From Moniliella sp. 'wahieum' (lineage: Eukaryota), in contig RSEE01000139.1 in NCBI GenBank assembly GCA_003971905.1, positions 120,992 through 140,991 of the forward strand: 20,000 nt of DNA. The letters run 5' to 3'. Of this stretch, positions 2,949 through 19,978 are shown one piece after another; the stretch's first letter is position 1, and each line of letters begins with the position of its first letter. The translations under genes were made by a program, and so were the position numbers. The notes beneath the pieces are model-generated. The model worked only from the letters and a program-made list of their open reading frames with translations, ran no database searches and was not told the DNA's origin.

Positions 2949-4670
2949 GGCTCAGGCGCTCAGGCGCTCAGGCTGAGCTATGATATTGACGGATGACTTG
3001 GACGACCGACAGGAGAATGCGTGGGAGGCCTTGCCGCCGCGAAACGGGGGCCAATGTACCTAGCCCGTTAAACTACTCGATTGGTTGGTCCGGTAGTTAG
3101 GGGTCAGTACTCAGTCGCTGACCCGATCAGAATGTGTTGAGCGTTAGTACGTTGAATGTTACGCTTATACGCCAACGCGTCAACGTTCACGTTAAGCGTT
3201 AAGCGCTAAGCCTTAAGTAGCGCAGCAGAGAGAAGAGCCGCGGCTTCCTAGGGACTTGAAGAGCTTGAAGCTTGAAGCTTGACACCCAGGGTTGGATGGA
3301 GTAGGTCGATTAAATACCGAATGAACCAGGGGCACCAGCAGGGACACTCAAGGAAGGGGCAGGGACGCCGACGCTAAGTACGTTAAACGTTAAACGTTGA
3401 ACGTTGAAGCTTTGAAGCTCATCTGGGCAAGATGGCCAGATAGAAGGATGCCCTTGGAAACGGTGCAAAACAGGGAGGGAGCATCGAGCACACGGCTATG
3501 CTGGTGCCGCACGTGCTGGCCCAGAAGAGGCGGTGTACGGAATATAAGGATGTGCGCCTCCATCATGCATCGCTAGCACTAGTCACTAGCTCGTTAGGAA
3601 AAGTGAATGAGTGCGCTGCCTTCGACGGCCTGGGTCTTCTGAAGCAGGGCGCAGTGCGGGAACGCCGTAGCTTGAACAATGGCCCCGTGGTGCAGATGTG
3701 CAAGTTGCGCCAGACCGCCAGTTTGATCGCAGCTGGTACCAGTAAGTTGGTACTAATACTTCGTGGACTCTGTACTCAGTGTACTCACGTACTTAAGAGT
3801 TGAGTTACTCACAGTACCTCAAGCCTCAGGCGGCCTCAGGCTCAGTACCGAGTACTGATTAATAACTGATTGCATCGGCTGCTGCGTGGCGCCTCGGAGC
3901 GTTAGAGAGTACGTATCTCAGAGAGAGGATCTCAGATGTCATCATGTCATCGAATCGACGATCTCGGTACGGAGTCGGGACTTGTTAGTAGTGACTAGTG
4001 ACTAGTGACTAGTGGCTCCAGCTAGTGACGAGTGACTAGTGACTAGTAACGCGTAACGCTTCATAACGATGGGACGTTGGGAGTGGTTGGAACGCCCCAT
4101 GCGCAGCGCCGACAGCCTCCATTGCCGGTTTCATAACCTCTTCAGTTTAATCGAATCCCTGTCGCTCCCTACCACCCTACCTTACGAGCTTTGATGTGCC
4201 CCGTACCGGTGACGGATGGTGGGTGGTTGATACTCAAAACGGAATGTACTGAATCGATAGTCGATAGTCCTTGGTAAATTTGAAAGCTCAATAGCGAATG
4301 CAGTGCCCCGTGCTGAGTGGCTGAGCCTTGCTGCGCCGTTGCGGGCATGTTGAGCAGCGGCCTGCAGCGGCTGAGCGGCTGCCTGCGCCTGCTGCGCCCG
4401 CTCTGGAACCTGGGGTGTCCGGTGTGTGGCTTGAAAAATCCCGAAGATAGGGGCGGGAACGCCCATTGTACTACGTTCAACGTTCAACGTAGTGTTCGTT
4501 CGAACGTCGTTGAGGTTGAACTTGATGCGGTTCTCATCGATCATCGACTATCGACCATCGATTCTCCATGATGATGTTGATGATGCAGATGCCGGGGGCA
4601 TCTGGTGCATCGTTCTTTGATGCTGGGATGGTCGATGGGGGCTCTGACGCATCCTCAGGCTCAGGCCTCA
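2949..4670. repeat. Intergenic field of short 7-nt-period tandem microrepeats with palindromic cores
   Basis: AAGCTTG repeats at 3262-3282, AACGTTR at 3380-3407, GTACT-based units at 3772-3857, GACTAGT at 3993-4013 and 4034-4047, CGATAGT at 4254-4268, AACGTTC at 4473-4490, ATCGAYY at 4536-4562. Confidence 0.8.
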
Positions 4671-5442: not shown

Positions 5443-7642
5443 ATGCAGCCAAGCATTCCGCTCAAGCGTTTCGACACGGGCGAGTCGGATGAGTCGGCCA
5501 TCGACACCGGCATGGGCGAGGGCATGGAGGAGGTCCACCCCGGCGGCATGCCCACCAAAGTGTTCAGCTGGCCGCCCGACACCAAGGTATCCGACGACGC
5601 CCCCTGGACTCACATCGTCCCCGTGCGGACCAAGGACACCAGCGACGACCATGCTGCCCAGGCGGAAATCGAGAGTGGCGACCGCTTTCCTCTCGAGGAC
5701 CAGCAGGACGTCCTCGATGTCTTGGGCGGCGGACTTGTCTCCCATCTCAATCTCTGGCGCGGGCAGAAGGCTTCCTTTGGCGACTTGTCCGGTGTCCCTA
5801 CTGCCCAGCAGGAGCTCTTTCATCTCCCTGCCGGCTTGCGCAAGGGGCTCAAGCAACGACAGTACGTTCTCTACCCCCGCTCGCACTGCTGCCGCTGACT
5901 TTTCTCCCTCCACAGTGTACAGAGTGAGTCGTGATTTTTTGTTCTTCCGTATTGTGCGAGATGGTGATGGGGAAGGTTGGACCATCGATCAAAACGCTAA
6001 CCAACGAGAGGCTAGTGATCGCCCTCAGCTCTGTGATTGCCGGCGGGATTTTCCTCCAGACGGGACATACCCTGGCTGTTGCCGGCCCGCTCTCCCTCTT
6101 GATCGCGTATCTTTTGACAGGCGGACTGATTGCGTGCGTGATACTGTGCGAGGCCGAGCTTGCCAGTTTAGCCCCTGTCTCGGGCTTTTACGTACGGCAC
6201 CCGTCCATGTGGCTGGATGAGGCAGTTGCGTTCGCCACGGGCTGGGCCATCGTGGTAGGCAACGCACTGGCGCTTGCGCCGGCCGAACTAATCTCCTGTG
6301 CCCAGATGGCACTCTACTGGGGGAATGTCTCCCCTGCCGTCCTAATCACCGTCATGGCCACTCTGATTGTGGCATCCAACGTGTTTATGCTACGCATCAT
6401 GGGGGAGGTGGAGGTGGTAGCAGCAGTGTTCAAACTGATCTTTATCATCATGCTTGTCATTCTCAGCATCTGCCTCGCCTCGACCTAGGTGCCGGGCCCA
6501 AGGGGGAACGGATCGGGTTCCGGTACTGGACCGCGCCCGATGGGCCCATGCGATCTTTTCTTCTCCCAGGGGCGAGTGGCAGGTTTTTGGGCGTTTGGCA
6601 AGCGGCCATCACCAGCGTTTACACTTTCACCACCATCGACGCTACGTTTGTTGCCGCTGCTGAGCTCGAGGCTCCACGACGCAACATCCCCAAAGCTGCC
6701 AAACGGTAGGTGCCTTTCCCTCTACGCATTCGCTTGTCTTGCGGTAGCAGATGACTGACAAGCAGGCAGTGTGTTTATTCGCGTTTTTGTCCTTTATAAC
6801 CTGCTCATCATCCATGGGGCTCATCGTCTCCTCCGTGACCCACGGTTGAACCGTACCGTAGGGACCCAACAGAGCGTCTTTGTCATTGCGGTCGAAACAG
6901 CTGGCATCAAAGCCATGCCCAGCATCATTAGTACGTCCTCTTGTCCCTTGCTCCGCCGGCCTTTCTCCATCCACAAGAAATTGACAAGTTGGATCACAGA
7001 CGTTTGTGTCATCGCTTCATCCTGGAGCGCAGCCAACTCGTTTGTCCTTGCAGGTTCGCGTACCTTGGTAAGCCTTTCTGAGGAAGGATATGCCCCCAAG
7101 GCGTTTACCAAGATTCACAAGTTTGGCGTGCCCTGGGTCGCGGTTTTGACCATGTGCATTTGCTTTTTTGGCCTTTCTTTCTGGCCATGTCTTCGCGCGC
7201 CACTTCCATTTTCAACTGGTTTGTCCAGTGCGTGGCCAGTGTGTACCTTTGGACATACTCGGTAATCTGCCTTACCTCGATCCGCGTACAACGCGGGATG
7301 AAGGTGCAGGGAATCAAACGTTCTTCCCTTCCCTGGAGTATGAGGGGGCAACCGTACATTGCCTACGTTGGACTGAGCGGCTGCCTCCTCCTCCTTCTCA
7401 GCAACGGAATCCAGATTATGGTCCCGGGTCACTTTTCCGTCCCGGCGCTCCTCTCTCTCGTACTTGGCTCCATTGGTTCTGCTAGGCGTCACGGCCCTGT
7501 ACAAATTCTGGTACCGTACCACCATTGTACCAGTGGAGGAGATGCCAATTCAACCCTGGATCATCCAACATATCATGAACCCCGAACCTCCTGCCCCTCG
7601 TTTGAGAGGTGGCGCCGCCTCCTCGTTTTCCTCTGGGCATGA
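5443..7642 (+). CDS. Amino acid permease (APC superfamily, fungal YAT type); four introns; apparent frameshifts
   Basis: Spliced N-terminal region reads LRKGLKQRHVQMIALSSVIAGGIFL, followed by AGPLSLLIAY, ELASLAPVSG, AVAFATGW, GEVE, SVFVIA, SAANSFVLAGSRTL and GVPWVAV. Introns at 5862-5915, 5924-6015, 6706-6769 and 6931-6999 all have GT..AG ends and branch-like sites. Confidence 0.92.
5916..5923 (+). other. 8-nt microexon of the permease gene
   Basis: TGTACAGA lies between a CACAG acceptor (ends 5915) and a GTGAGT donor (5924). Including it restores the conserved RHVQMIA motif. Confidence 0.85.
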
Positions 7643-9462
7643 GTGCCTTCACCATTTTCTCCTCCTGTATCATAATATCTTGCCCCCATCAATTCTCTGG
7701 ATCCAACTGTTACGTGGGGAGTGAGACTCTTGAGGTTCATAGTCGCGCATAGCTAGTCACAAGGCAGCCCACAGGGGGCTCTAATCCGCCAAGCTGGACG
7801 ATTGATGGATCGGTTTCCCACCAACGGTGGGATCAACGAGGATAAAAAACTCAGGATCGTGTTGCCAACGGAACGAGGCCGACCAAAGACAACAGGGAGG
7901 AAGAAAGGAAAAGAGACACCGAAGCATATAAACTTGATGCGTTCGTTTTTGTAACGGCCCATTGAACAAGGGGTCAACTCCTATACTTGCTTCCATGCAC
8001 CGTCGACCGTACAGGCGGATTGTAGGGAGATTGAAGCAACAGAGGATACCATGGATGCAATAGAACAGATAATCCACCGGCAGTGGGGATATAGGGGTCA
8101 AATACATCTCATCCACCAACCCATGTTGTGAGTGGTGGCAGAGTGGGTGGACATGACGACGGTCAAAGCCTTGGCACATCAAAAGGGTGTGGGGGGGGTC
8201 ACGGCATGAAGAAACAGGCGGTAACGATGAGAACACACACAGAAGCGAGGAGAAATGATTGCTTGCGCGAGCAGGGTGGAGGTGGCCTGGGGGGGACGGG
8301 GAAATGAACAACTCAATGTGTACCGGCTCCCTGCGGGTTGGCCTCCCCGTTTGGTACACGTCGAATTCTGTTTTGGGGCTTCGATGTCAGGGCTCTCAGC
8401 AAGGTAAAACCGGGCGGAGCATGAAAATGACTTCAGTGCCAGGTCGCCCCCCGACCCACGGCAGATGGATAGGTCGGACGAAGGATGCATACCGAGCGCT
8501 GTTTGTGGGCTTCTACCGCTGATGCTCGTGCCGGGACGCTGCCTCAACTAGGGAAATGGTAACGGGGTCATCCGGCACTTGCAGGATGATACTGTTGATG
8601 CCGAACTGCGCGCTTCCCGCCACCATACTAGGACACGCGTTGGATCCCGAATTGGCCCAGGGCAGCCCTACGCATGGGACACGCACAAGATAGGACCGCG
8701 CATGTCGTGGTCAGTTGCATGGGGAAAGAGGGTGAAAGGGGGGCATCGCGCGGCGGTAGAGCAGACATCTGATTCTCGATTGTCTCTGCGAACTCAGTCA
8801 GCATGAATGGCGTGCATGACTCAGCACGGTGATCTTGCAACCAAAGACACACCCAGCCGATTTCGCGCCGTGTTTGGCTGCATCTGGTGCAAGGGCCAAG
8901 GCGAGACGCATCCCCCGCTAGCCCATCACCCTGCACGGCTGCCCGGCGGCGTCGACGTGATTGGCTCCCGTTAGCGCCACATGATGTGCGTGCATGACCT
9001 CGACTGGCAGCGTCGACGGCGCGCAGAGACGGAAGGATGACATGGATGGCAGCAAACAAGAAGACCAGCGGGCCGACACGGTGGCGATGGCGGTGGCGGG
9101 GCGCAGTCCGGTGACAGGAACCGATTTGCGGGGAACGGACTCGACTCCCGGCGCCCTACGGCCTAGAGCTGCACTACACACCGAGAGCTGCCCCACCGGC
9201 CTGGCCCGGACCGGCGTCCTTGTGTGGGGTAAACGTTTAAAGAGGGGAGGTTCTGTCGGCGAATACACGCCGCAGCACGGCGTTGGGTGGCACCCAACCA
9301 GTGTCGGCGCAATGCAACCCTAGTGGGCATGCACGTTCTCACTGAGCCCGCTTCCCGCGGCCCCCACCCCCCCGCGGACGCGTGCCGGGCGTGTGGCGTT
9401 AGCATTCAATATTGAGCCAAGTCCCCGACAGCGCCCGCGCCTGCTCCCACCCACCTGCCGTC

Positions 9463-11309
9463 ATGTCTGCCGAGATCCCTGCTGTCAACGACGACGTCTA
9501 CCAGGGTGCCATTGGCATCGACCTGGGCACCACCTTCTCCTGCGTCGGCTGGTGGACCAACGAGCGTGTCGAGATTGCCAACGACCAGGGCAACCGCACG
9601 ACCCCCTCCTATGTCGCCTTCACCGACTCGGAGCGTCTCATTGGTGATGCTGCCAAGAACCAGGCAGCAATGAACCCGCGCCAGACTGTGTTCGATGCCA
9701 AGCGTCTCATTGGCCGCCGCTTCGACGACCCCGATGTCAAGAAGGACATGGCCACTGGCCGTTCACCGTCGCTGACCGCGATGGCTCCCCCGTCATCGAG
9801 GTGGAGTACCTCGGCGAGAAGAAGCATTCACGCCCCAGGAAATCTCTGCCATGGTTTTTGACCAAGATGAAGGAGATTGCTGAGGCCAAATTGGCAAGGA
9901 GGTCAAGAAGGCGGTTGTCACTGTCCCTGCCTACTTCAACGACTCGCAGCGTCTTGCCACCAAGGATGCGGGTTCCATTGCCGGCCTTGAGGTGCTCCGT
10001 ATCATCAACGAGCCCACTGCCGCCGCCATTGCGTATGGTCTCGACTCGAAGTCGGCGGAGGAGAAGAACGTGCTCATCTTTGACTTGGGTGGTGGTACCT
10101 TCGATGTGTCGCTTTTGAACATCACGGGCGGTGTATTCGCTGTCAAGGCTACCGCCGGTGACACCCACCTTGGTGGTGAGGACTTTGACAATGCTCTCCT
10201 TGAGCACTTCAAGGCGGACTTCCAAAAGAAGACCGGCCACGACATCTCGGGCGATGCTCGTGCTGTGCGGCGTCTGCGCTCGGCCTGCGAGCGTGCCAAG
10301 CGCACTCTCTCGTCACTCACCCAGACCACTGTTGAGGTTGACTCTCTGTTCCAGGTGAGGACTACGAGGCCAGCATCACGCGTGCCCGCTTCGAGTCGAT
10401 CAACGCGGCTGCGTTCAAGGGTACCCTCGACCCTGTGGCCAAGGTGCTGAAGGACTCGAAGATCCCCGCCGACAAGGTGGACGACATTGTTCTGGTTGGA
10501 GGCTCGACGCGTATTCCCAAGATCAGTCGCTCGTGTCGGAATTCTTTGGTGGCCGTCAGCTCAACAAGTCGATCAACCCCGATGAGGCGGTTGCGTACGG
10601 TGCTGCGGTCCAGGCCGCCGTGCTGACGGGCCAGACGTCCGACAAGACGGCCAACCTGCTCCTGCTCGACGTGGCGCCCCTCTCGCTGGGTGTGGCCATG
10701 CAGGGCGATGTGTTTGGTGTCGTGGTTCCCCGCAACAACGCCCATCCCCAGCAACAAGTCGCGTGTCTTCACCACGGTTGAGGACAACCAGACGCAGGTT
10801 ACGTTCCCCGTGTACGAGGGCGAGCGCACCCAATGCAAGGACAACCGTCTGCTGGGTGAGTTTGAGCTGACTGGCATCCCCCCCGCACCTAAGGGCACGG
10901 TGGAGCTGCTCACCACTTTCGAGGTGGACGCCAACGGTCTCCTCAAGGTCACTGCCCAAGAAAAGACCTCGGGCCGTAAGGCCAACATCACCATCACCAA
11001 CTCTGTCGGCCGTCTTTCGAGCGCAGAGATTGAACAGATGATTAAGGACTCGGAGAATTTCAAGGCCTCGGACAAGGAGTTCCAGGCACGCCACGATGCC
11101 AAGAACGACCTGGAGGCGTATGTGAACCAGGTAGAAACCACCATCTCCAGCCCTACCGCCAACTTTAAACGTGCGGCCAAGAACCAGATCGAGACGGAGC
11201 TGGCCAAGGCGCTCGAAGTGCGACTTGGACGACGCCAAGGCGGACGACTTCCGCCGTGCTTCGCTTCGCCTCAAACGGTCTAGCAGAAGCCATGTCGGGC
11301 GGCCGTTAA
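9463..11309 (+). CDS. SSB: Ribosome-associated Hsp70, SSB type (intronless; multiple apparent frameshifts)
   Basis: Motifs [101 protein letters not shown] and [15 protein letters not shown]. The C-terminus ends KAMSGGR* with no EEVD, as in SSB proteins. Confidence 0.95.
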
Positions 11310-11593
11310 GAAAGGCTTTAGTCCTTGTTCCAAAAGGTCCTCATCGCGATTCCCTCTCCTATTCTCCTGAGGTCCTACTAGGTTCTCCGTGAATCGCCTG
11401 CGCCTCATGCTCAGTCTAGGCTCATAGGGTCAGGCTCGGATTTGGTTCTCTCGCGTCAAGCATATACGCAGCAATAAAAAAGAGAAAAAATACTGGTTGA
11501 AAAGGGAATTGATCACGAGGGCTCCAAGGAGCCGCGGTCTAGTGCTACGCACTGGTCTGCCGTAGGACAGCTGAGAGATACTACTACGCGATC

Positions 11594-12674
11594 TGTTGTT
11601 GTGGAAACATGTTCATTTCAGCCTCATAATACTTGTTGACCCACAAATGCTAGAGTGCGACTTGAGAGCACTCGCGATCCTATGGATCAGCTGCAAGCAA
11701 CCTTCAGACAAGGCGTAAGGCAAAGTGGTGAGCCACAAGTCTTCAAGCAACGTCTGAAGGGAAGGAGAAAGGAGAGAGAGGGAGATGGAGCGAGCAGGGC
11801 TGCGCGGCCTGCGAGCGGAACGCTTCCGCTCGGCTAGGCGAGCGTCACCGATCCATTGAGGGCCGTGCAGGAGAACCCTAGCAGTACCCTCTAACAGCCC
11901 CCCTCGGTGAGCTCGCCAGACCACAGGTGGGTGGTCCGGCCAAGGGCCAAGGCATGGGTGAAGAAAAGGATGTCTCCAACGCCTCTGGTCAAAAAGTGAA
12001 ATGAAAAACATAATTGGCAAGCGATGTTGCCATCAAGGAAGAGAAACAGTATATTCAACGCAGGAGGTAAGGAGGAAGCGTAGAAAGTCACAAGGTCATT
12101 CAACTTGGAAGTATAAACAACATGTTCCAAGTCGAAACAGGATGTTCAACGTATGAGGAGGAAGCGTAGAAGTCATAGAGGTCGATTCAACTTGGAGGTA
12201 GAAACAACATGCTCCAATCGAAAGAGTATGTTGAACGTGTGCAGGTAAGGAAGCTTTGAAAGTCATAGAGGTCGATTCAACTTGGATATAGACAACATAT
12301 GCCAAGTCGAACAGTAAAAACGTAGAGTTGAGGTCGAGTAGAGCCTAGAAGGCAATGCAACTTGAAAAGAAACCAACAGGTCAAATTTGGCACAGCCATG
12401 AAAAGGAGAAAAGGACCAAATTCAGGACGAAAAAGGATGACGACTGGTCAACCGTCACGCGGTATCAGGAGATGGAGATGGAGGAAAGGATAGAATCATA
12501 TTCATCGAGTGGCATAGGCGAGGTATATAACCTCGGAGAAGAGTAGAACAGGTGAGCTGAGTCACACGGAGAAAACAAAGGGGAGCATAGACCAAAAGGG
12601 GAAACAGGGTCTAGAACAAAACAGGGTTCAGTCGATCTGGTAACCATCGGTACCAGGTGGGTCTGATCCCGACA
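11594..12674 (-). repeat. Possible long 3' LTR of the truncated copia remnant
   Basis: On the minus strand, about 85 bp downstream of the RNaseH stop, purine-rich GGTGGAGAG is followed by TGTCGGGA (begins 12674). Candidate distal ends (TGTTG on plus) are at 11594 or 11634. There is no second copy to confirm the boundaries. Confidence 0.35.
12043..12316. repeat. Three diverged tandem units of about 86-91 bp
   Basis: Units start at 12043, 12134 and 12220, with a partial one at 12309. Each contains GGAAGC, AAGTCA, GGTC(G)ATTCAACTTGGA and ACAACAT. Confidence 0.9.
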
Positions 12675-12759: not shown

Positions 12760-13627
12760 TCAGATCAGGGTGAGAGCTTGAGCAGCACGCGGCGCGTCGT
12801 CAGTCCACGCGGTAGAGCTTTGGTAAAGATGTCTGCAGCATTGTCGGAGCCAGGAATGTGTTAATGGCAGCCGACCGCGTTGGATCTCCGTACGGACAAT
12901 GGTAGCGCCAGTCAGGTGGCGAAGACGGCCAGTGGAACCGATCTTGACAGAGTCGCCGTAGGCGCCTTGGCTGTCCGAGCGGATATGGATAACTTCAGCG
13001 TTGGTAACCAATTAAACTCGGCTAGTACGTTGCGAAGGTACTGAGCCTGCTGTAGACCCTCTGCGACCGCCACGTACTCGGCAGCTGTGGTGGAAGATGT
13101 GGTGAGCGTTTGCCGAGGCTCTCCCAAGAGACATGGACACCCCAGACGAAGAGAAAACCAGTGATGTTGCGTTGGTCGGGCGCCCCGTAACTTGCGTCGC
13201 AATGTAGAAGGAGAGGCAGGTCCGAGGGGTGCGCTGAGAGGGAAAGAGCTGTGTCAGCCGTGGCTTGAACGTAGCCGAGAGCATCCCACGCAGCTTGGCG
13301 GTGAGCCGAAGACGGGTCGCTGGCGAAGCGGCAGAGAAGGCGCGTGGTGAAGGCAAGATCCGGGCGGGAGATGCGCGACAACCAAAGGAGACTGCCGACA
13401 ATGGCTCGGTACTGATGGTGCTCAGAAGGAGTCGCACGCGGCTCGTCGCCCGGGCGAGGCTGGAGACAGACGCCGCTGCGGAGAGGAACAGTGTGCCGAT
13501 GCGTGGTGGGGACAGCAAAGTCGGAGATTAAAGACTGGACAAAGGTGCGCTGGTTCACAAGGAAGGAGCCATCCAGTTGGGCTGCAAAGTGCGCGCCGAG
13601 GAAGGTAGAGAGGGGGCCGGAGGAACT
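12760..13627 (-). mobile_element. Truncated Ty1/copia pol remnant (RT C-terminal part and RNase H)
   Basis: Motifs GPLSTFLG, YRAIVGSLLWLSRISRPDLAF, LHCDASYG, TSSTTAAEYVA and IRSDSQGA, plus DNAADIFTKALP in another frame. It is frameshifted, and similarity stops abruptly at about 13627. Confidence 0.9.
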
Positions 13628-14409: not shown

Positions 14410-14477
14410 GCCGCCGCCGCCCGCCGCCCGCCGCCGCGACCGCCACCACCACCACCACTCCCACCACCACCACTACC
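14410..14477. repeat. GCC/ACC low-complexity tract that served as the retrotransposon target
   Basis: (GCC)n then (ACC)n up to the target-site duplication. The ACC-rich sequence resumes at 19536-19575. Confidence 0.85.
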
Positions 14478-14637
14478 TGTCGGCCTCGCTACTACCACAG
14501 AATGTGAGCACTGAACGTCGTATTGGACTAAGAAGCTTCTGCGACTGACTCGTCCAGAAGACTGGTGCGAGCTCGGAAGGAATGAAAGCTGACTCACGTG
14601 ACTCAGGGTCCGCGCGGTCCTAGGACGGATGTCAACA
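14478..14637 (-). repeat. 3' LTR (160 bp)
   Basis: Reads TGTTGACATCC...GGCCGACA on the minus strand. Base-by-base identical to 19376-19535. Confidence 0.97.
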
Positions 14638-17600
14638 CCCCCGCTGACCGGAGGGCCCAGTCATGTGGACTGGATCCATCTCCTCGACGCGGAGTTGAGC
14701 AAGATGGCTTGTCAGGGCGGGACGGCCGAGAGGCTTGGTGAGGACGTCCGCTGGGTTCCTTTCGCCGGGGATGTGTACAAGTATGGCCTCGCCCGAGTCC
14801 ACGTGTTGCCGTACATTGTGGTACCGGATCTTCAGCTCTCGGAGCTTGCCGGTGCTGCCAAATTTGTGGGCGAGATCGACGACAGACTTATTGTCGCAAT
14901 ACCAATGAATGGGTGTACCCTCGCCGATGGCCCCAAGCTCGATCATGATGTTCTTGACATAGTTGGCGTCAACCAGTCCATCATATCCTGCCGTATATTC
15001 GGCGGCGGCGGTACTGGTAACGCTCTTCGGCTGAAGAATGGATCGCCACGACACCGGCACACCGTACACCATCAGTAGGCATCCAGATGTGGAGCGTGCC
15101 TGGATGGGATCTCCCGCCAAGTCGGAATCTGTATACAGCGCAATGGCCGGTGCATCTGATGTTGGGGTCAACCTCAGGCCCTTTCCTCGAGTATGGTACA
15201 GGTAGCGAAGGAAGTCATCGACTGCTTGATGATGCTGCTGCGATGGGTCGGCAGCGGCTCTGCTGAGGGCCGTGATAGCGAAGAGGGAGTCAGGCCGGCC
15301 CATTCGTGCAGCCCACAGTCCCGATCCGATCTTCCCCTGATATGCCTTGCGCAAGGCTGGGAGGGATGGGGGTTCAGGGTCGGCACGGGGCGGTATCATC
15401 CGTACGGGATGTGGGAGAGTCCGGATCCACGGGGCTTTGATGTGGTGCTTTGCCACCACTTCCTCGATGAACTTTGGTTGGCTCAGGTACAGCTCCCCAC
15501 CGATCCGATCGTATTGGCATCCCAGGTGGTAGTGAAGGGGACCGTTACCACGAACATCAATGTGTGTGTTTATCTCGGCCATAAACTCCTCGTACTTTTG
15601 GTGTGACTTGCATGCGAGGAGCAGATCGTCGGTGTGGACCGCCAGGAGGATCTGCTCACCCGGTGGTGCAGCGCGCACGAACAAGCAGGGCTCGGTCAAG
15701 CTTTGCGTGAAGCCGAGCTTGTCACGCAGCAGGTTCCGGATGTATCGTGCCCAGTTTGCTCCGCTCTGATGTAGCCCGTATAGACTCTTCTTGAGACGCC
15801 ACACGCGACCACCCGCTTCGGGGAAGTAGGGGGGTGGGCGGATGTAGACTGCTTCTTCGAGGGGGGTTCAGGTACGCTGCATTGACGTCCGCCGAGAAGA
15901 GGCCAAACTTATACTTCTCGGCCAGCACGACGAGGGTCAGGATGGCAGGTGTGCGCACCGATGGTGCGAACGTCTGGCCCCAAGTCTCGGCCGATTGTTG
16001 GTGTCCGCCCGCGACAAAGCGCGCGCGGTGGCGCAGGAACCGGCCCTCGGCGTCCGTCTTTGTGGTGATGCGCCATAGTCCTATGAGGATTTGTGCACCC
16101 GGTGGTGGGTACGTAGCCTCGTAGGTGCCGTATCGCGCGAGTGTGGCCACCTCGTCGGCCATAGCCTGCTTGACCATGGCAAAGGAGGGGTGAGTCTCGA
16201 GACCCTTGAGCGTCTTGGGAGCGAGGGGTACGCCATCCTTGGTGAGCTGAACCGTGTCCGGGTGGATGGGTGCGCTGAGAGCAGTCATGGCGGCGTATTC
16301 GGGAGGTTGAACTGTGTCGGCAAACGGGGGGGCGGATGTGTCAGGTAGGGGGCGGGCGATGCCGATCTCTGGTGCGGCGCAGTGGGGCGTGGCGGCTGCA
16401 GCACGAGCATGGTAGGTCGTGTCGGTGGGGTCGTCAGCGATTGGGAGTGTGTGCAGGTCGAGGGAGGTGCGGGTGGTGCGCTGGCGGAGGGGGTAGCGGC
16501 GCGGAGGGGGGGTGGTGGTGGGAGCGGGTGTCTGGGGTGTGGCGGCGGTTCGGGGCATGGGTGCTGCCGCGGCTGGCGGAGTAGGGTTAGCGTCTTTTTC
16601 ACTGTCGATTTTAATTTGAGGTGATTTGGAGATGTCGGGTGGGAAGTGGTCGGGGTGGAGATGGGGGTAGATGGCGTTGCCCCATTTGTACGGTTTCGAC
16701 CAGCGGTAGGTGAAGGTACCCAGGGATGGTTGGTATGTGGCGAAGAGCCATCCCTTTGATCCGCGCTGATGGTGGTATCCTACCAGCATACCTTCCTCTG
16801 CCCGCGCGCTGAGCTTGTGCTCGCGGCGTGACTCGGGCAGATGGAGGTATGCAACGCGGCCAAAGGGTTGCATCGGTAACGAGTATGCGTGGCCTTTGTA
16901 TCGCTCAAATCGCGATTTGTTGTCTTCCCCGGATGTTTTGAGTGGCATTTGGTTTTGGGTGAAGCACGCAGCGTGGAGGCTGTGTTCCCACCAGTCCGAC
17001 GTCGGAAGACCTGTACCCAAGAGCAACTGCCTTGCACGAGTCGTTATGGTTCGGATGGCACGCTCAGCCACACCGTTGCTAGCACTCTGCCCCGGGATTG
17101 TCCGTTCTGACGTGATGCCTTGCTCGTCCAGAAAAGGTTGCAGTGCGCTTGTCAATTCGGGGGCGTTGTCCGTGCGCAAAGTCCGCAGCAGTCTGTCCGG
17201 GCCGTAGCGTTGCTCCCGCAATATGAGGTTCCGCAGTTCCTTCGTTGCAGCGCCCTTTGTCGGGATCGCTGTGGTGAAGACGTACCGCGTGAAGTCATCA
17301 ACGGCGACGAGGGCGTATCCGTGCCCCATGCCGGTTACCCGGGGGAGGTCTACTACGTCGACGTGGAGGACCTCGAAAGGTCTTTTGGATCGGAGGCGGT
17401 CCCGGCTCGGATGGGGCGATGCTGTCGCTAGTGCCACCGCGCATGTTGGGCAATCCCACTCTGAACGACAGAGGGAGATATGCTTGGCTGTGACGCGGAG
17501 GCCTGCGGTTTCCGATCGTGTAAGCCAGGGGAGGAGGTCGATGGCTGCGTGGTTCCAGCGTTTGTGGGCTTTAGAGACGTGGTCCAGGGCCAGGGATGCT

Positions 17601-18073
17601 GCGAGGGAGTTTGGGGTTGAGGGTGGGTCGGCCGGTTTGATCGGTTTGGTCGCCATGGCCCGCAGGGGTGTGGGTGGCGTTCGCGGGTTGTGTAAGATCG
17701 TGAATTGATAGTCACTGCCGGTTACTTTTCGTAGGGTGGATCCTGGGTTACCAAGCCAGATACCCTTCTGGTGTGGGGCGAAGTATGATGCGATTCCGGT
17801 GTTCGACAGGTGTGCTACACTGACGAGATTTCGGCTGAAACGGGGCATGTATAGGCTGTTGGGGAGTTTTATCTCCATTTGGTGTCCTCCTAAGCATCGG
17901 ATACGGATTGTGGCCGTGCCTCGTCCTTCCGCCTTTACATGTGTCCCGTTAGCAACCTCTATCTCGTCGTCGCAAGGGGTCATGGATGTGAAGACGGATT
18001 TGTCTTTCCAAATGGATGGGAATGCCCCACTGTCATATAATGCCCGGATGATTCGCATTTCGCCCCCGAGTTC
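14632..18073 (-). CDS. pol: Pol polyprotein (protease, integrase, reverse transcriptase, RNase H); one frameshift in a homopolymer near 15861-15866
   Basis: PR: LYDSGA. IN: HKRWNH..CPTC, LHVDV, LRTDNAPE, SNGVAER. RT: RARFVAGG, DVNAAYLN, LKKSLYGLHQSG, VHTDDLL. RNaseH: YTDSD, AAEY, YCDNKS, NPADVLTKPL. The stop lies in the first bases of the 3' LTR. Confidence 0.95.
14638..14648 (-). other. Polypurine tract (short)
   Basis: Minus-strand GTCAGCGGGGG directly precedes the TG of the 3' LTR. Confidence 0.75.
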
Positions 18074-19321
18074 CTAGTAGTCAGCTGTGCCCGCATCAAC
18101 GTCAATCACTTCAGACTCGGGAGAGCTCGCTCTCTGAGCGACGTGAGCGTTGGCTCGGCCTGGGTTGCGCGGAGGGACAACAGGTTTATTAGACGTCGCG
18201 CTGCGCCAGGGTTGGTTGGTGCGGTCTTGCCCCTTGGTCTTTGTGTCCGCGAGGTTGTCGTCGCCGGCTTTGCCCCCGCTGGAGTTTTTTCCCCCGCTGG
18301 TGGGTCGTCCCCCGCTGTCGGGTCGAGTCCAAGGCGTTCCTCCGTTGACCGGCTTGCCTCCGTTTCTCTTCCTTTCTCCACCGGGATACGTGGCGGCTGG
18401 TATGTCCATCACGGCCTGCCGTAACTTGTCTAGACTCGAGCGCTCTTCACGCTGGCGAATGCTCATGTCGCGTAAGCCGAGTAGGATCCCAGTGCGTTCC
18501 TGCTCTTCCGTAAGTGGGATGCCCGCTCGCGTCAGGCTTGCACTGATCTCTTCCATGTAGTCGAGGTAGTCTCGACCCGATCGGTTTCCTTGGTCGGCCG
18601 AAAAGTAGCGAATGAGTAGAGGCCCTCTGTTTGCGGTAGGCGTATATCCATACCGCTGACGCAGCATGTTCAGCGTGTCCTGGGTGCATGATATTTCGTG
18701 GTGGGTGCGGATCGTCCGGAAGAGGGTTGACGGCATGGCTTCCCTAAGAAGGTTGTGCAAGCGTCTGTCGAGGTCCTCGGTGAAGTAGCGGGAGCTGCGA
18801 CCATTCTGGACGACGTCGCTTGCGTGGGGGTGGGCATCTGTTATCGCGAAGAGAAATTCGTCTTCCCAAGCGCTGTAGGCGGACGGGTCTTTGTTCAGAT
18901 CAGGCCACTTGATATTCTTGGTGGGAGACTCGCGTAGTGATCTGTAAAGGTCGTACTCGGGTCGCGAGGCTGCGCCTGTAGGTGCCCCCAAAGTTGCGTT
19001 GGGTTGAGTTTCCATTTGGTGGATGTTTTGCACCACAAAATTCGTAGCCCGTCGAACCCAGTTTGTCGTGATAGACGTAGGTTCGTCCTTCCATCCAAGC
19101 CACTCGGCTCTGTCGTGTATAGCTCTGTTGATCTTCTCTTTAACGACATCGATGTCGTTCGTCTTCTTGAACCACAGGTGCGCTTCGGCGCAAAGCATCA
19201 TGAGTTCCTCGTTGTCGGTGCCAATCGGTGGCGGATCGCGACCGGTTGGTGTCCAGTAATCGCGCTTGTTCACCATTGTGGTGTCGCTGACCGAGAGATC
19301 GGTGTTAGCGTTGGCGCCCAT
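18074..19321 (-). CDS. gag: Gag protein of the copia element (about 415 aa)
   Basis: First ATG after the 5' LTR is at 19321 (MGANANT). It has a copia-gag-like helical region (YSAWEDEF; LNMLRQRYG; DYLDYMEEISASL; ILLGL) and a basic Gly-rich tail, and ends at TAG 18074-18076. Confidence 0.85.
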   Translation of the reverse strand: MGANANTDLSVSDTTMVNKRDYWTPTGRDPPPIGTDNEELMMLCAEAHLWFKKTNDIDVVKEKINRAIHDRAEWLGWKDEPTSITTNWVRRATNFVVQNIHQMETQPNATLGAPTGAASRPEYDLYRSLRESPTKNIKWPDLNKDPSAYSAWEDEFLFAITDAHPHASDVVQNGRSSRYFTEDLDRRLHNLLREAMPSTLFRTIRTHHEISCTQDTLNMLRQRYGYTPTANRGPLLIRYFSADQGNRSGRDYLDYMEEISASLTRAGIPLTEEQERTGILLGLRDMSIRQREERSSLDKLRQAVMDIPAATYPGGERKRNGGKPVNGGTPWTRPDSGGRPTSGGKNSSGGKAGDDNLADTKTKGQDRTNQPWRSATSNKPVVPPRNPGRANAHVAQRASSPESEVIDVDAGTADY

Positions 19322-19359
19322 GGTTGTGGGTGTAGTTTTGGCCAGCTCAGGGATGAGCA

Positions 19360-19375
19360 GATAAGGATGTAACTC
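19360..19375 (-). other. Primer-binding-site position (non-canonical sequence)
   Basis: Minus-strand GAGTTACATCCTTATC abuts the CA end of the 5' LTR. It is called by position only; no primer was identified. Confidence 0.55.
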
Positions 19376-19535
19376 TGTCGGCCTCGCTACTACCACAGAA
19401 TGTGAGCACTGAACGTCGTATTGGACTAAGAAGCTTCTGCGACTGACTCGTCCAGAAGACTGGTGCGAGCTCGGAAGGAATGAAAGCTGACTCACGTGAC
19501 TCAGGGTCCGCGCGGTCCTAGGACGGATGTCAACA
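19376..19535 (-). repeat. 5' LTR (160 bp)
   Basis: Identical to 14478-14637. Confidence 0.97.
19488..19503. promoter_or_regulatory. Two AP-1/Gcn4-type sites overlapping an E-box in the presumed U3 of the LTR
   Basis: TGACTCA-CG-TGACTCA contains TCACGTGA. The same sequence is at 14590-14605. Confidence 0.55.
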
Positions 19536-19670
19536 CTACCACCACCATTTTCACCACCCCCACCTTTTTCACCACGCATCGTCGTTTCATAGCGCGCATC
19601 GTCCATACCTGCAATCCATTCGGTGCTAGCCCCTCTGGAGCCCACATGCCATCTCTCGTGCACACTGGTT

Positions 19671-19912
19671 GGGTAGGGTTAGGGATGGTGGGTGTAACTT
19701 GTCAACGGTGCGTCCAATCGAGAAACGGAGGCCATATGCTGCATAGAGCGGACGATTTTATAGCGAGCTATCGTCGAGGCCATCGGAGGGTGGGTGGGGT
19801 GGGTCGGGGTGGGTAGGGTTAGGGATGGGGGGTGTAACTTTTGAACGGGTGGTCCAATCGAAAACGGAGGGCATATGCTGCATAGAGCGGACGATTTCGT
19901 AGCGAGCTATCG
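19671..19912 (+). repeat. Two subtelomere-like units with 140-bp period, each starting with a telomere-like seed
   Basis: 19671-19773 and 19811-19912 both begin GGGTAGGGTTAGGGATGG and share TGTAACTT, GTCCAATCGA and CATATGCTGCATAGAGCGGACGATTT..TAGCGAGCTATCG. Confidence 0.9.
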
Positions 19913-19978
19913 CCTCGGCATAACTCTCCCCCTCTCCCTTCGGGTAGCTCGCTACTACCCTCGCCCTCGGCCCTCCCC

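Follow-up and report, generated by a model that had tools for sequence, protein, structure and literature searches.

A Ty1/copia LTR retrotransposon on the minus strand of the window (the whole 20,000-nucleotide stretch of Moniliella sp. 'wahieum' DNA analysed here, to which all coordinates refer) carries gag and pol in one reading frame split by a single UAG. In the family of this element, designated family A, the stop codon is fixed and inherited. Because the junction fits the description of type III readthrough signals, we consider it probable that the UAG of family A is passed by programmed readthrough. By analogy with viral systems the element most likely works like a type III readthrough element and not through a pseudoknot of the MuLV type; the candidate structural signal is an extended stem that is predicted to open about 8 nt after the stop and to close with a partner strand about 265-300 nt downstream, in family A and its two nearest families.

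Architecture of the element and its surroundings

The window element (14478-19535) is by structure an ordinary member of the Ty1/copia group, as its LTRs, 5-bp target-site duplication, primer-binding site and polypurine tract (Table 1) and the order of its pol domains attest, Pfam placing Pol_BBD, rve, SH3 and RVT_2 in the copia order. The initial annotation of this DNA had reported identical LTRs, an intact target-site duplication and a single lesion besides the stop. All three descriptions hold: the 160-nt LTRs are identical and flanked by the 5-bp duplication, and the second lesion, in RT, is a small deletion at a run of Cs near 15861-15866 that is private to the window copy and missing from all 17 other copies readable there. 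The gag of the element has no Pfam match, and a capsid-like helical core is common to the gag of family A and of families B, C, D, E and H, six families in all. When the gag model was used in a fold search the top hit was the Drosophila Copia capsid 8vvw (E 0.004), followed by the Ty1 CA-CTD, with none at E <= 0.001.

The primer-binding site at 19365-19375 is complementary to the anticodon arm of an intron-containing host tRNA, with 29 genes against 0 for the control. This tRNA was read by hand as tRNA-Tyr(GUA), the labels from ARAGORN without its intron mode being inconsistent, and the complementarity suggests half-tRNA priming by tRNA-Tyr(GUA) for the window element. The primer-binding sites of families A to E comprise a complement of the Tyr(GUA) anticodon arm followed by a complement of the D arm, and those of families F, H and I are what we take to be initiator-Met-half-like. 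A literature search on tRNA-Tyr half priming found nothing. tRNA-Tyr is a known natural suppressor of UAG. Within the LTR, at 19488-19503 of the minus strand and at the same site of the 3' LTR, two TGAGTCA motifs, presumably Gcn4/AP-1-like, overlap a CACGTG box.

Beside the element, at 13022-13627 on the minus strand, lies a degenerate RT/RNase H-like copia remnant with no Pfam match. Frameshift-split host genes of the eIF4E-like, amino-acid permease and Ssb-type Hsp70 kinds occupy 1290-2500, 5928-7642 and 9403-11340, and small tandem or dispersed repeats with spacings of about 14, 87-90 and 140 nt occur at 3967-4050, 12083-12302 and 19667-19919. The assembly is indel-prone and holds its chaperonin genes in two copies. 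Judged by the Hsp70 in the window, whose best match is Ssb1, and by the nearest named copia proteins, which come from Ustilago, the host is a fungus.

Table 1. Features of the window element and its gag/pol junction, in window coordinates
Feature	Position	Strand	Remark
Target-site duplication, 5' side	19536..19540	.	same 5 bases as 14473-14477
Target-site duplication, 3' side	14473..14477	.	5 bp
5' LTR, 160 nt, TG...CA	19376..19535	-	identical to 3' LTR
3' LTR, 160 nt	14478..14637	-	identical to 5' LTR
Primer-binding site	19365..19375	-	complementary to anticodon arm of intron-containing host tRNA
gag, 415 codons, start ATG 19321	18077..19321	-	
In-frame UAG at gag end	18074..18076	-	56/56 copies; TAG at border in 9/9 families
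Spacer 3' of stop	18067..18073	-	G at +1 in 9/9 families
ATG, five codons 3' of stop	18056..18058	-	family A only
Protease DSG motif (Pol_BBD)	18026..18034	-	
5' arm of predicted extended stem, +8 to +44	18030..18066	-	
3' arm of predicted extended stem, +265 to +299	17775..17809	-	within protease coding sequence
Upstream arm of previously proposed 9-bp stem	18115..18123	-	short windows only; competes with distal stem
pol, PR-IN-RT-RNase H	14632..18073	-	broken near 15861-15866; stop codon inside 3' LTR
Short polypurine tract	14638..14645	-	direct sequence reading

The stop codon within family A

The TAG at 18076-18074 of the minus strand lies in the frame of gag and is separated from the protease Asp (18034-18032) by 13 codons, exactly as the initial annotation had quoted the sequence in placing the stop ahead of the protease DSG motif. 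What had been read from one copy holds across the genome. A search pattern with NNN at the codon found TAG in 56 of 56 places, with no sense codon anywhere in the family, and a pattern for the 28 bases downstream of the stop found 54 places, all within those 56. The 801 bases around the stop are identical in 33 of the 40 scored matches, and three of the seven other copies with frames listed have an intact gag and an intact 1146-codon pol with the TAG alone between them. One family A copy has its protease region interrupted by a 5.6-kb LTR element.

An assembly or base-call error, or a chance mutation, at the stop is ruled out by the presence of TAG in 56 of 56 copies. The family A loci with a readable 5' flank that were fetched (40) correspond to 34 distinct places with 34 different flanks, and for the 34 places checked duplicated haplotypes are ruled out as a source of inflated copy number, despite the presence of host genes in duplicate.

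Conservation of the stop and its context in nine families

Protein and profile searches of the genome yielded eight further copia families, B to I. Over aligned residues their Pol identity to family A is 61% for B and C, 48% for D and E, 33% for F, 33% for G (over 123 residues only), 35% for H and 30% for I. Third-position identity between families at four-fold sites is 19-33%, and none of the 35 columns shared by seven families is invariant; on these alignments synonymous sites between families are saturated. An in-frame TAG-G nevertheless stands at the gag/pol border in all nine families, with assembly-type frameshifts between the stop and the protease motif in G and H. The context after the stop is also kept, with G at +1 (9/9), A at +2 (8/9), C at +6 (7/9), G at +7 (7/9) and G at +9 (8/9). 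Both +6 and +9 fall on the third base of a codon, and the amino acids encoded there differ. Families B and F have 13 identical bases from the stop on although their Pol is only 33% identical.

The nine families are not independent of each other. In a tree built without G (no usable sequence), Tca2 and VdLTRE5, families A to E group together with support 100, F and H adjoin this clade, and I falls with weak support amid unrelated copia proteins. A metagenomic background set was assembled from 426 confirmed copia-like loci, of which 80 were kept; setting aside 16 without a protease match and 6 partial ones leaves 58 with a readable protease start. In 40 of these the frame stays open across the junction or as far as the contig start; in the other 18 a stop occurs within 200 codons, and two of them share a UGA-CUAG junction. 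TAG-G at the junction occurs in 0 of the 58.

Two side observations concern other copia elements. An unrelated metagenomic lineage (two loci) has its zinc knuckle followed directly by a GAA-TGA-CTAG junction, whose context is of type II. Protein records of Ustilago copia gene models have different gag positions joined to one pre-protease site, as would be expected of predictors skipping a stop or a frameshift.

Stop-bearing and stop-less junctions

Across all families 101 of 129 junctions carry the TAG: 56/56 in A, 20/20 in B (one truncated locus excluded), 2/2 in C, 6/29 in D, 3/3 in E, 9/14 in F, 1/1 in G, 1/1 in H and 3/3 in I. The 23 stop-less junctions of family D have an 87-nt deletion (18 copies), TCG (3) or AGG (2), and the exceptions in family F comprise three copies with a 27-nt deletion, one with a 24-nt deletion and one that is degenerate. 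Three independent deletions span the stop, of 87, 27 and 24 nt (both F lengths being hand counts), and each has a length divisible by three. In the 87-nt and TCG lineages of family D the gag start codon is missing too; two stop-bearing D copies carry the same 5' deletion, which indicates that loss of the gag start preceded loss of the stop. Two of the three F copies with the 27-nt deletion have a 66-nt deletion in gag.

As judged from the frame-keeping stop-less sublineages, synthesis of Pol as part of a Gag fusion is evidently possible. The spread of these sublineages also speaks against programmed readthrough, in that copying does not require the stop, at any rate where helpers exist, Gag probably being supplied in trans. 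The 87-nt-deletion sublineage of D outnumbers its stop-bearing parent by 18 copies to 6, and the stop-less sublineages may consist of Pol-rich elements that borrow Gag. Most stop-less D copies have an integrase frameshift; it is likely an assembly error, since it lies at a G-run, is found in stop-bearing copies as well and is absent from a short-read protein record, which is unbroken there. Two other features coincide in a pair of family D copies, which have a 54-nt in-frame GT...AG deletion in the integrase-RT linker, resembling retrotransposed spliced RNA, and which retain the TAG.

Predicted RNA structure downstream of the stop

Local folds around the stop of family A have z scores of +1.0 for a 141-nt region, +0.9 for -60 to +40 and +0.8 for +1 to +60, no stability beyond that of shuffled sequence, and families A, B and C are without a local hairpin after the stop. 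The type of fold after the stop differs between families: families F and G have a predicted hairpin starting at +9, D and E have one starting at +5, a helix opens near +6 in H, and a long hairpin opens at +1 in I.

When distant partners were sought for +9 to +38, the best one lay at the same location in each of families A, B and C (windows from +250, +240 and +268), the best duplex of this 30-nt query in family A (-26.6) being weaker than the control-window mean (-30.9). Folds of +1 to +340 from the three families each contain a multi-helix stem running from +8/+9 to between +295 and +302, most of its pairs having probabilities >0.9. For +1 to +309, a window that like the stem arms was chosen after the pairing was seen, z is -4.76 in A (0/100 shuffles), -2.63 in B and -3.11 in C, against -0.22 to +1.25 in six control 309-nt windows of the family A element. 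The same region has no excess stability in D, G and H (z +0.1, -0.5 and -0.5), reaches about -2.2 in F and I, and has no such fold at the metagenomic UGA-CUAG junction (z +1.6).

Of 500 synonymous randomisations per family, 4 in A and none in B or C reached the stability of the duplex between the arms, and in every element the 197 other windows were all weaker. Heterologous arm pairs were weaker than the cognate pair in five cases out of six and equally stable in the sixth. RNAalifold predicted the basal helix unprompted, with one compensatory G-C to A-U change, and in the three-sequence alignment 74% of cells pair, as against 29-46% for slid partners. Covariation among the three sequences amounts to 2 double changes, a number not above shuffles (197/500). 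The distal stem of family A is also predicted in a 500-nt window, with z there only -1.9.

Two local structures had been put forward in the initial annotation as the signal at the stop, and neither is borne out. The pseudoknot formed by CUCGGG/UCCGGG with AAUGC/GCAUU can be drawn, but its stems share one base, its stability falls within that of shuffles and it is displaced by the distal arm in the longer fold; a compact H-type pseudoknot beginning at +9, as in MuLV, is not supported by these folds. The 9-bp stem between 18115-18123 and 18063-18071 appears in short windows only and overlaps the spacer covered by the ribosome, and when 67 upstream bases are included the distal stem persists and displaces it. 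A similar helix across the stop is predicted in family C.

Proposed mechanism

In the mechanism that we favour, family A, an actively spreading Ty1/copia family, would set its ratio of Gag to Gag-Pol by programmed readthrough of the UAG. The majority of ribosomes would halt at this codon and release Gag, and a minority would insert an amino acid by means of an ordinary near-cognate tRNA and continue into Gag-Pol, the rate of readthrough and the inserted residue being conjectural. The signal would be of type III, consisting of UAG with a G on its 3' side, about 8 nt of spacer and a helix positioned at the mRNA entry of the ribosome. This helix would be the extended stem with its partner strand about 265-300 nt downstream in A and its two nearest relatives, and a local or medium-range hairpin in the remaining families. 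The suggestion in the initial annotation that the stop is functional and sets the Gag:Pol ratio is therefore sustained as far as the codon is concerned, which is fixed, conserved and best explained by readthrough, and is abandoned with respect to the local structures.

In the available portions of the reports cited here and below, type III readthrough is described by three features, a UAG, a G or purine-rich octamer on its 3' side and an RNA structure that likewise lies 3' (PMC3542737), and its users include MuLV and other gammaretroviruses (pseudoknot), epsilonretroviruses (extended stem-loop) and Tombusviridae (PMC3542737, PMC13517186); in MuLV the helix begins at G9 after an 8-nt spacer (PMC13517186; PMC8310308). 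The copia junctions share with these cassettes an in-frame UAG between two ORFs, the adjacent G in nine of nine families, a helix near +9 (predicted here) and putative control of a polymerase fusion. The motifs of type I (UAG-CARYYA) and type II (UGA-CGG/CUA) do not follow the stop. The initial annotation was right that the context is neither CARYYA nor the MuLV sequence, and the class is nonetheless MuLV-like in its UAG-G, its spacer of about 8 nt and its predicted helix. Among the type III hexamers listed in the portions available are UAGGAU, present in families G and H, and UAGGGG, present in family I; the UAGGAA of family A is not a listed hexamer, and its octamer after the stop has 5/8 purines, with three pyrimidines in the spacer. 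The copia junctions also differ from the viral cassettes in their setting, a retrotransposon in a fungal host, and in that a pseudoknot is unsupported.

Comparison with known systems

A further structural parallel is found in the extended stems of alphaviruses, which have spacers of 8-12 nt and a distant 3' arm inside coding sequence (PMC3159437). The stem predicted here is similar in its spacer, its coding 3' arm and its long, less conserved loop; the alphavirus signals have UGA-C and loops of 101-154 nt, whereas the copia junctions have UAG-G and a predicted span of about 290 nt.

Among retrotransposons, Tca2 (pCal) of Candida albicans is a Ty1/copia element whose gag and pol lie in one frame split by UGA (PMC2194720; PMC7175516). 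It resembles the window element in its copia domain order, 8-nt spacer and proposed 3' structure, and differs in having UGA with a proposed local pseudoknot where we find UAG-G in nine families. Programmed readthrough at the window junction has to contend with the observation that the similar-looking 300-nt junction of Tca2 (150 nt on each side) gave no readthrough in yeast, for which its authors suggested a role of remote cis sequences (PMC2194720). Tca2 was tested to 150 nt, and the predicted partner strand of the window element lies 265-300 nt away. VdLTRE5 of Verticillium dahliae, also Ty1/copia, has a gag-stop-pol layout with UGA in two copies (PMC3441728). It shares with the window element short LTRs (159 bp), this layout and the lack of CARYYA, and differs in its UGA; no signal is described in the available part of that report. 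The fission yeast Ty3/gypsy elements Tj1, Tosmo and Tcry1 have an in-frame gag stop (PMC4600332; bioRxiv 10.1101/2022.12.06.519325), and its removal from Tj1 abolished transposition (PMC4600332). These elements likewise keep the gag stop with a short context across families, but they belong to the gypsy superfamily and the context is GAA-TGA-CT.

Alternative explanations

Splicing would provide a different route to Pol, if the TAG doubled as a 3' splice acceptor (YAG/G) or if another intron removed it, so that a minor spliced RNA encoded Gag-Pol or Pol. The G that follows the AG in nine of nine families and a branch-like CTGAC 3 nt upstream in A and B would suit an acceptor, and the 54-nt GT...AG deletion in two D copies suggests that such RNAs may be spliced and then copied into DNA. 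The same two spliced-looking copies retain the TAG, however, and a deletion ending at the AG is seen in 0 of 129 junctions, while the stop-spanning deletions never have GT...AG ends. A conserved in-phase donor was not found, the sole consensus-like donor of family A lying 40 nt inside the LTR; CAG is never the acceptor sequence, and a conserved helix 8 nt downstream would be unexpected for one. These observations make splicing improbable. A-to-I editing that turned UAG into a Trp codon in a fraction of the RNA, perhaps in the sexual stage only, is comparably doubtful, and stage-specific editing of the tRNA-deaminase type known from fungal sexual tissue, by which Pol would be made in the sexual cycle only, is if anything less probable still. 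All nine junctions fit the fungal editing preference for U at -1 and A or G at +1 and +3 (PMC11156358), the target A is predicted to be unpaired in A, C and I, and A-to-I editing has been reported in Microbotryum (PMC13608869). The target A is predicted to be paired in E, F and H, however, and earlier reports of editing in basidiomycetes have been called artefacts (PMC11156358). Edited genomic RNA would be copied as TGG, and so the finding of TGG in 0 of 129 junctions, where the sense variants are TCG and AGG, counts against editing unless the edited RNA is unpackaged.

Production of Pol as a separate protein, from a promoter at the junction or by re-initiation at the ATG at 18058, has a similarly slender chance of being the explanation. 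This ATG, which precedes the protease motif and follows the stop by five codons, had been named in the initial annotation as a start that would speak against readthrough, and weak promoter activity has been described at the Tca2 junction (PMC2194720). In families B, C, D, E and F, on the other hand, the first in-frame ATG comes after the catalytic Asp; the ATG has no counterpart before the protease motif in B to F, and re-initiation there cannot be general. Separate expression also needs no common frame, yet nine families and three stop-spanning deletions keep it. The least probable of the alternatives, and a very unlikely one, is that the stop is unprogrammed, being read as sense, decoded by an amber suppressor or carried as a dead passenger moved by a stop-less helper. 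Stop-less relatives do exist in D and F, and a host gene ending in TAG was not found among the ten chaperonin loci examined. But TAG lies inside only 4 of 105 chaperonin matches, mostly alongside other stops, and Pol frames run for 1146-1504 codons without it. A CUA anticodon is present in 0 of 5 tRNA-like matches to a non-exhaustive pattern, read by hand, and stop-less members number 0 of 56 in family A. A neutral lesion would not leave the same stop at the same position in nine families whose synonymous sites are saturated. Programmed readthrough thus remains the reading that we prefer for family A.

Implications

The gag-stop-pol layout of copia elements is already known from Tca2 and VdLTRE5, both with UGA. 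What appears to be new is a UAG cassette kept across a clade of copia elements, together with a predicted distal stem. In the literature searched, a search to which most subscription journals were closed, we found no copia readthrough signal with a UAG or a distal stem, and the available part of PMC5009743 mentions neither copia elements nor Tca2. How gag-stop-pol copia elements bypass their stop has been an open question since the failed Tca2 test (PMC2194720). The predicted partner strand 265-300 nt downstream is a concrete candidate for a remote element, one that a window of the size used for Tca2 would miss, and the stop-less in-frame sublineages offer natural controls. In-frame gag stops of this kind may lead gene predictors to call introns. 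If the proposed mechanism is true, virus-style type III readthrough with an extended stem would extend to Ty1/copia elements.
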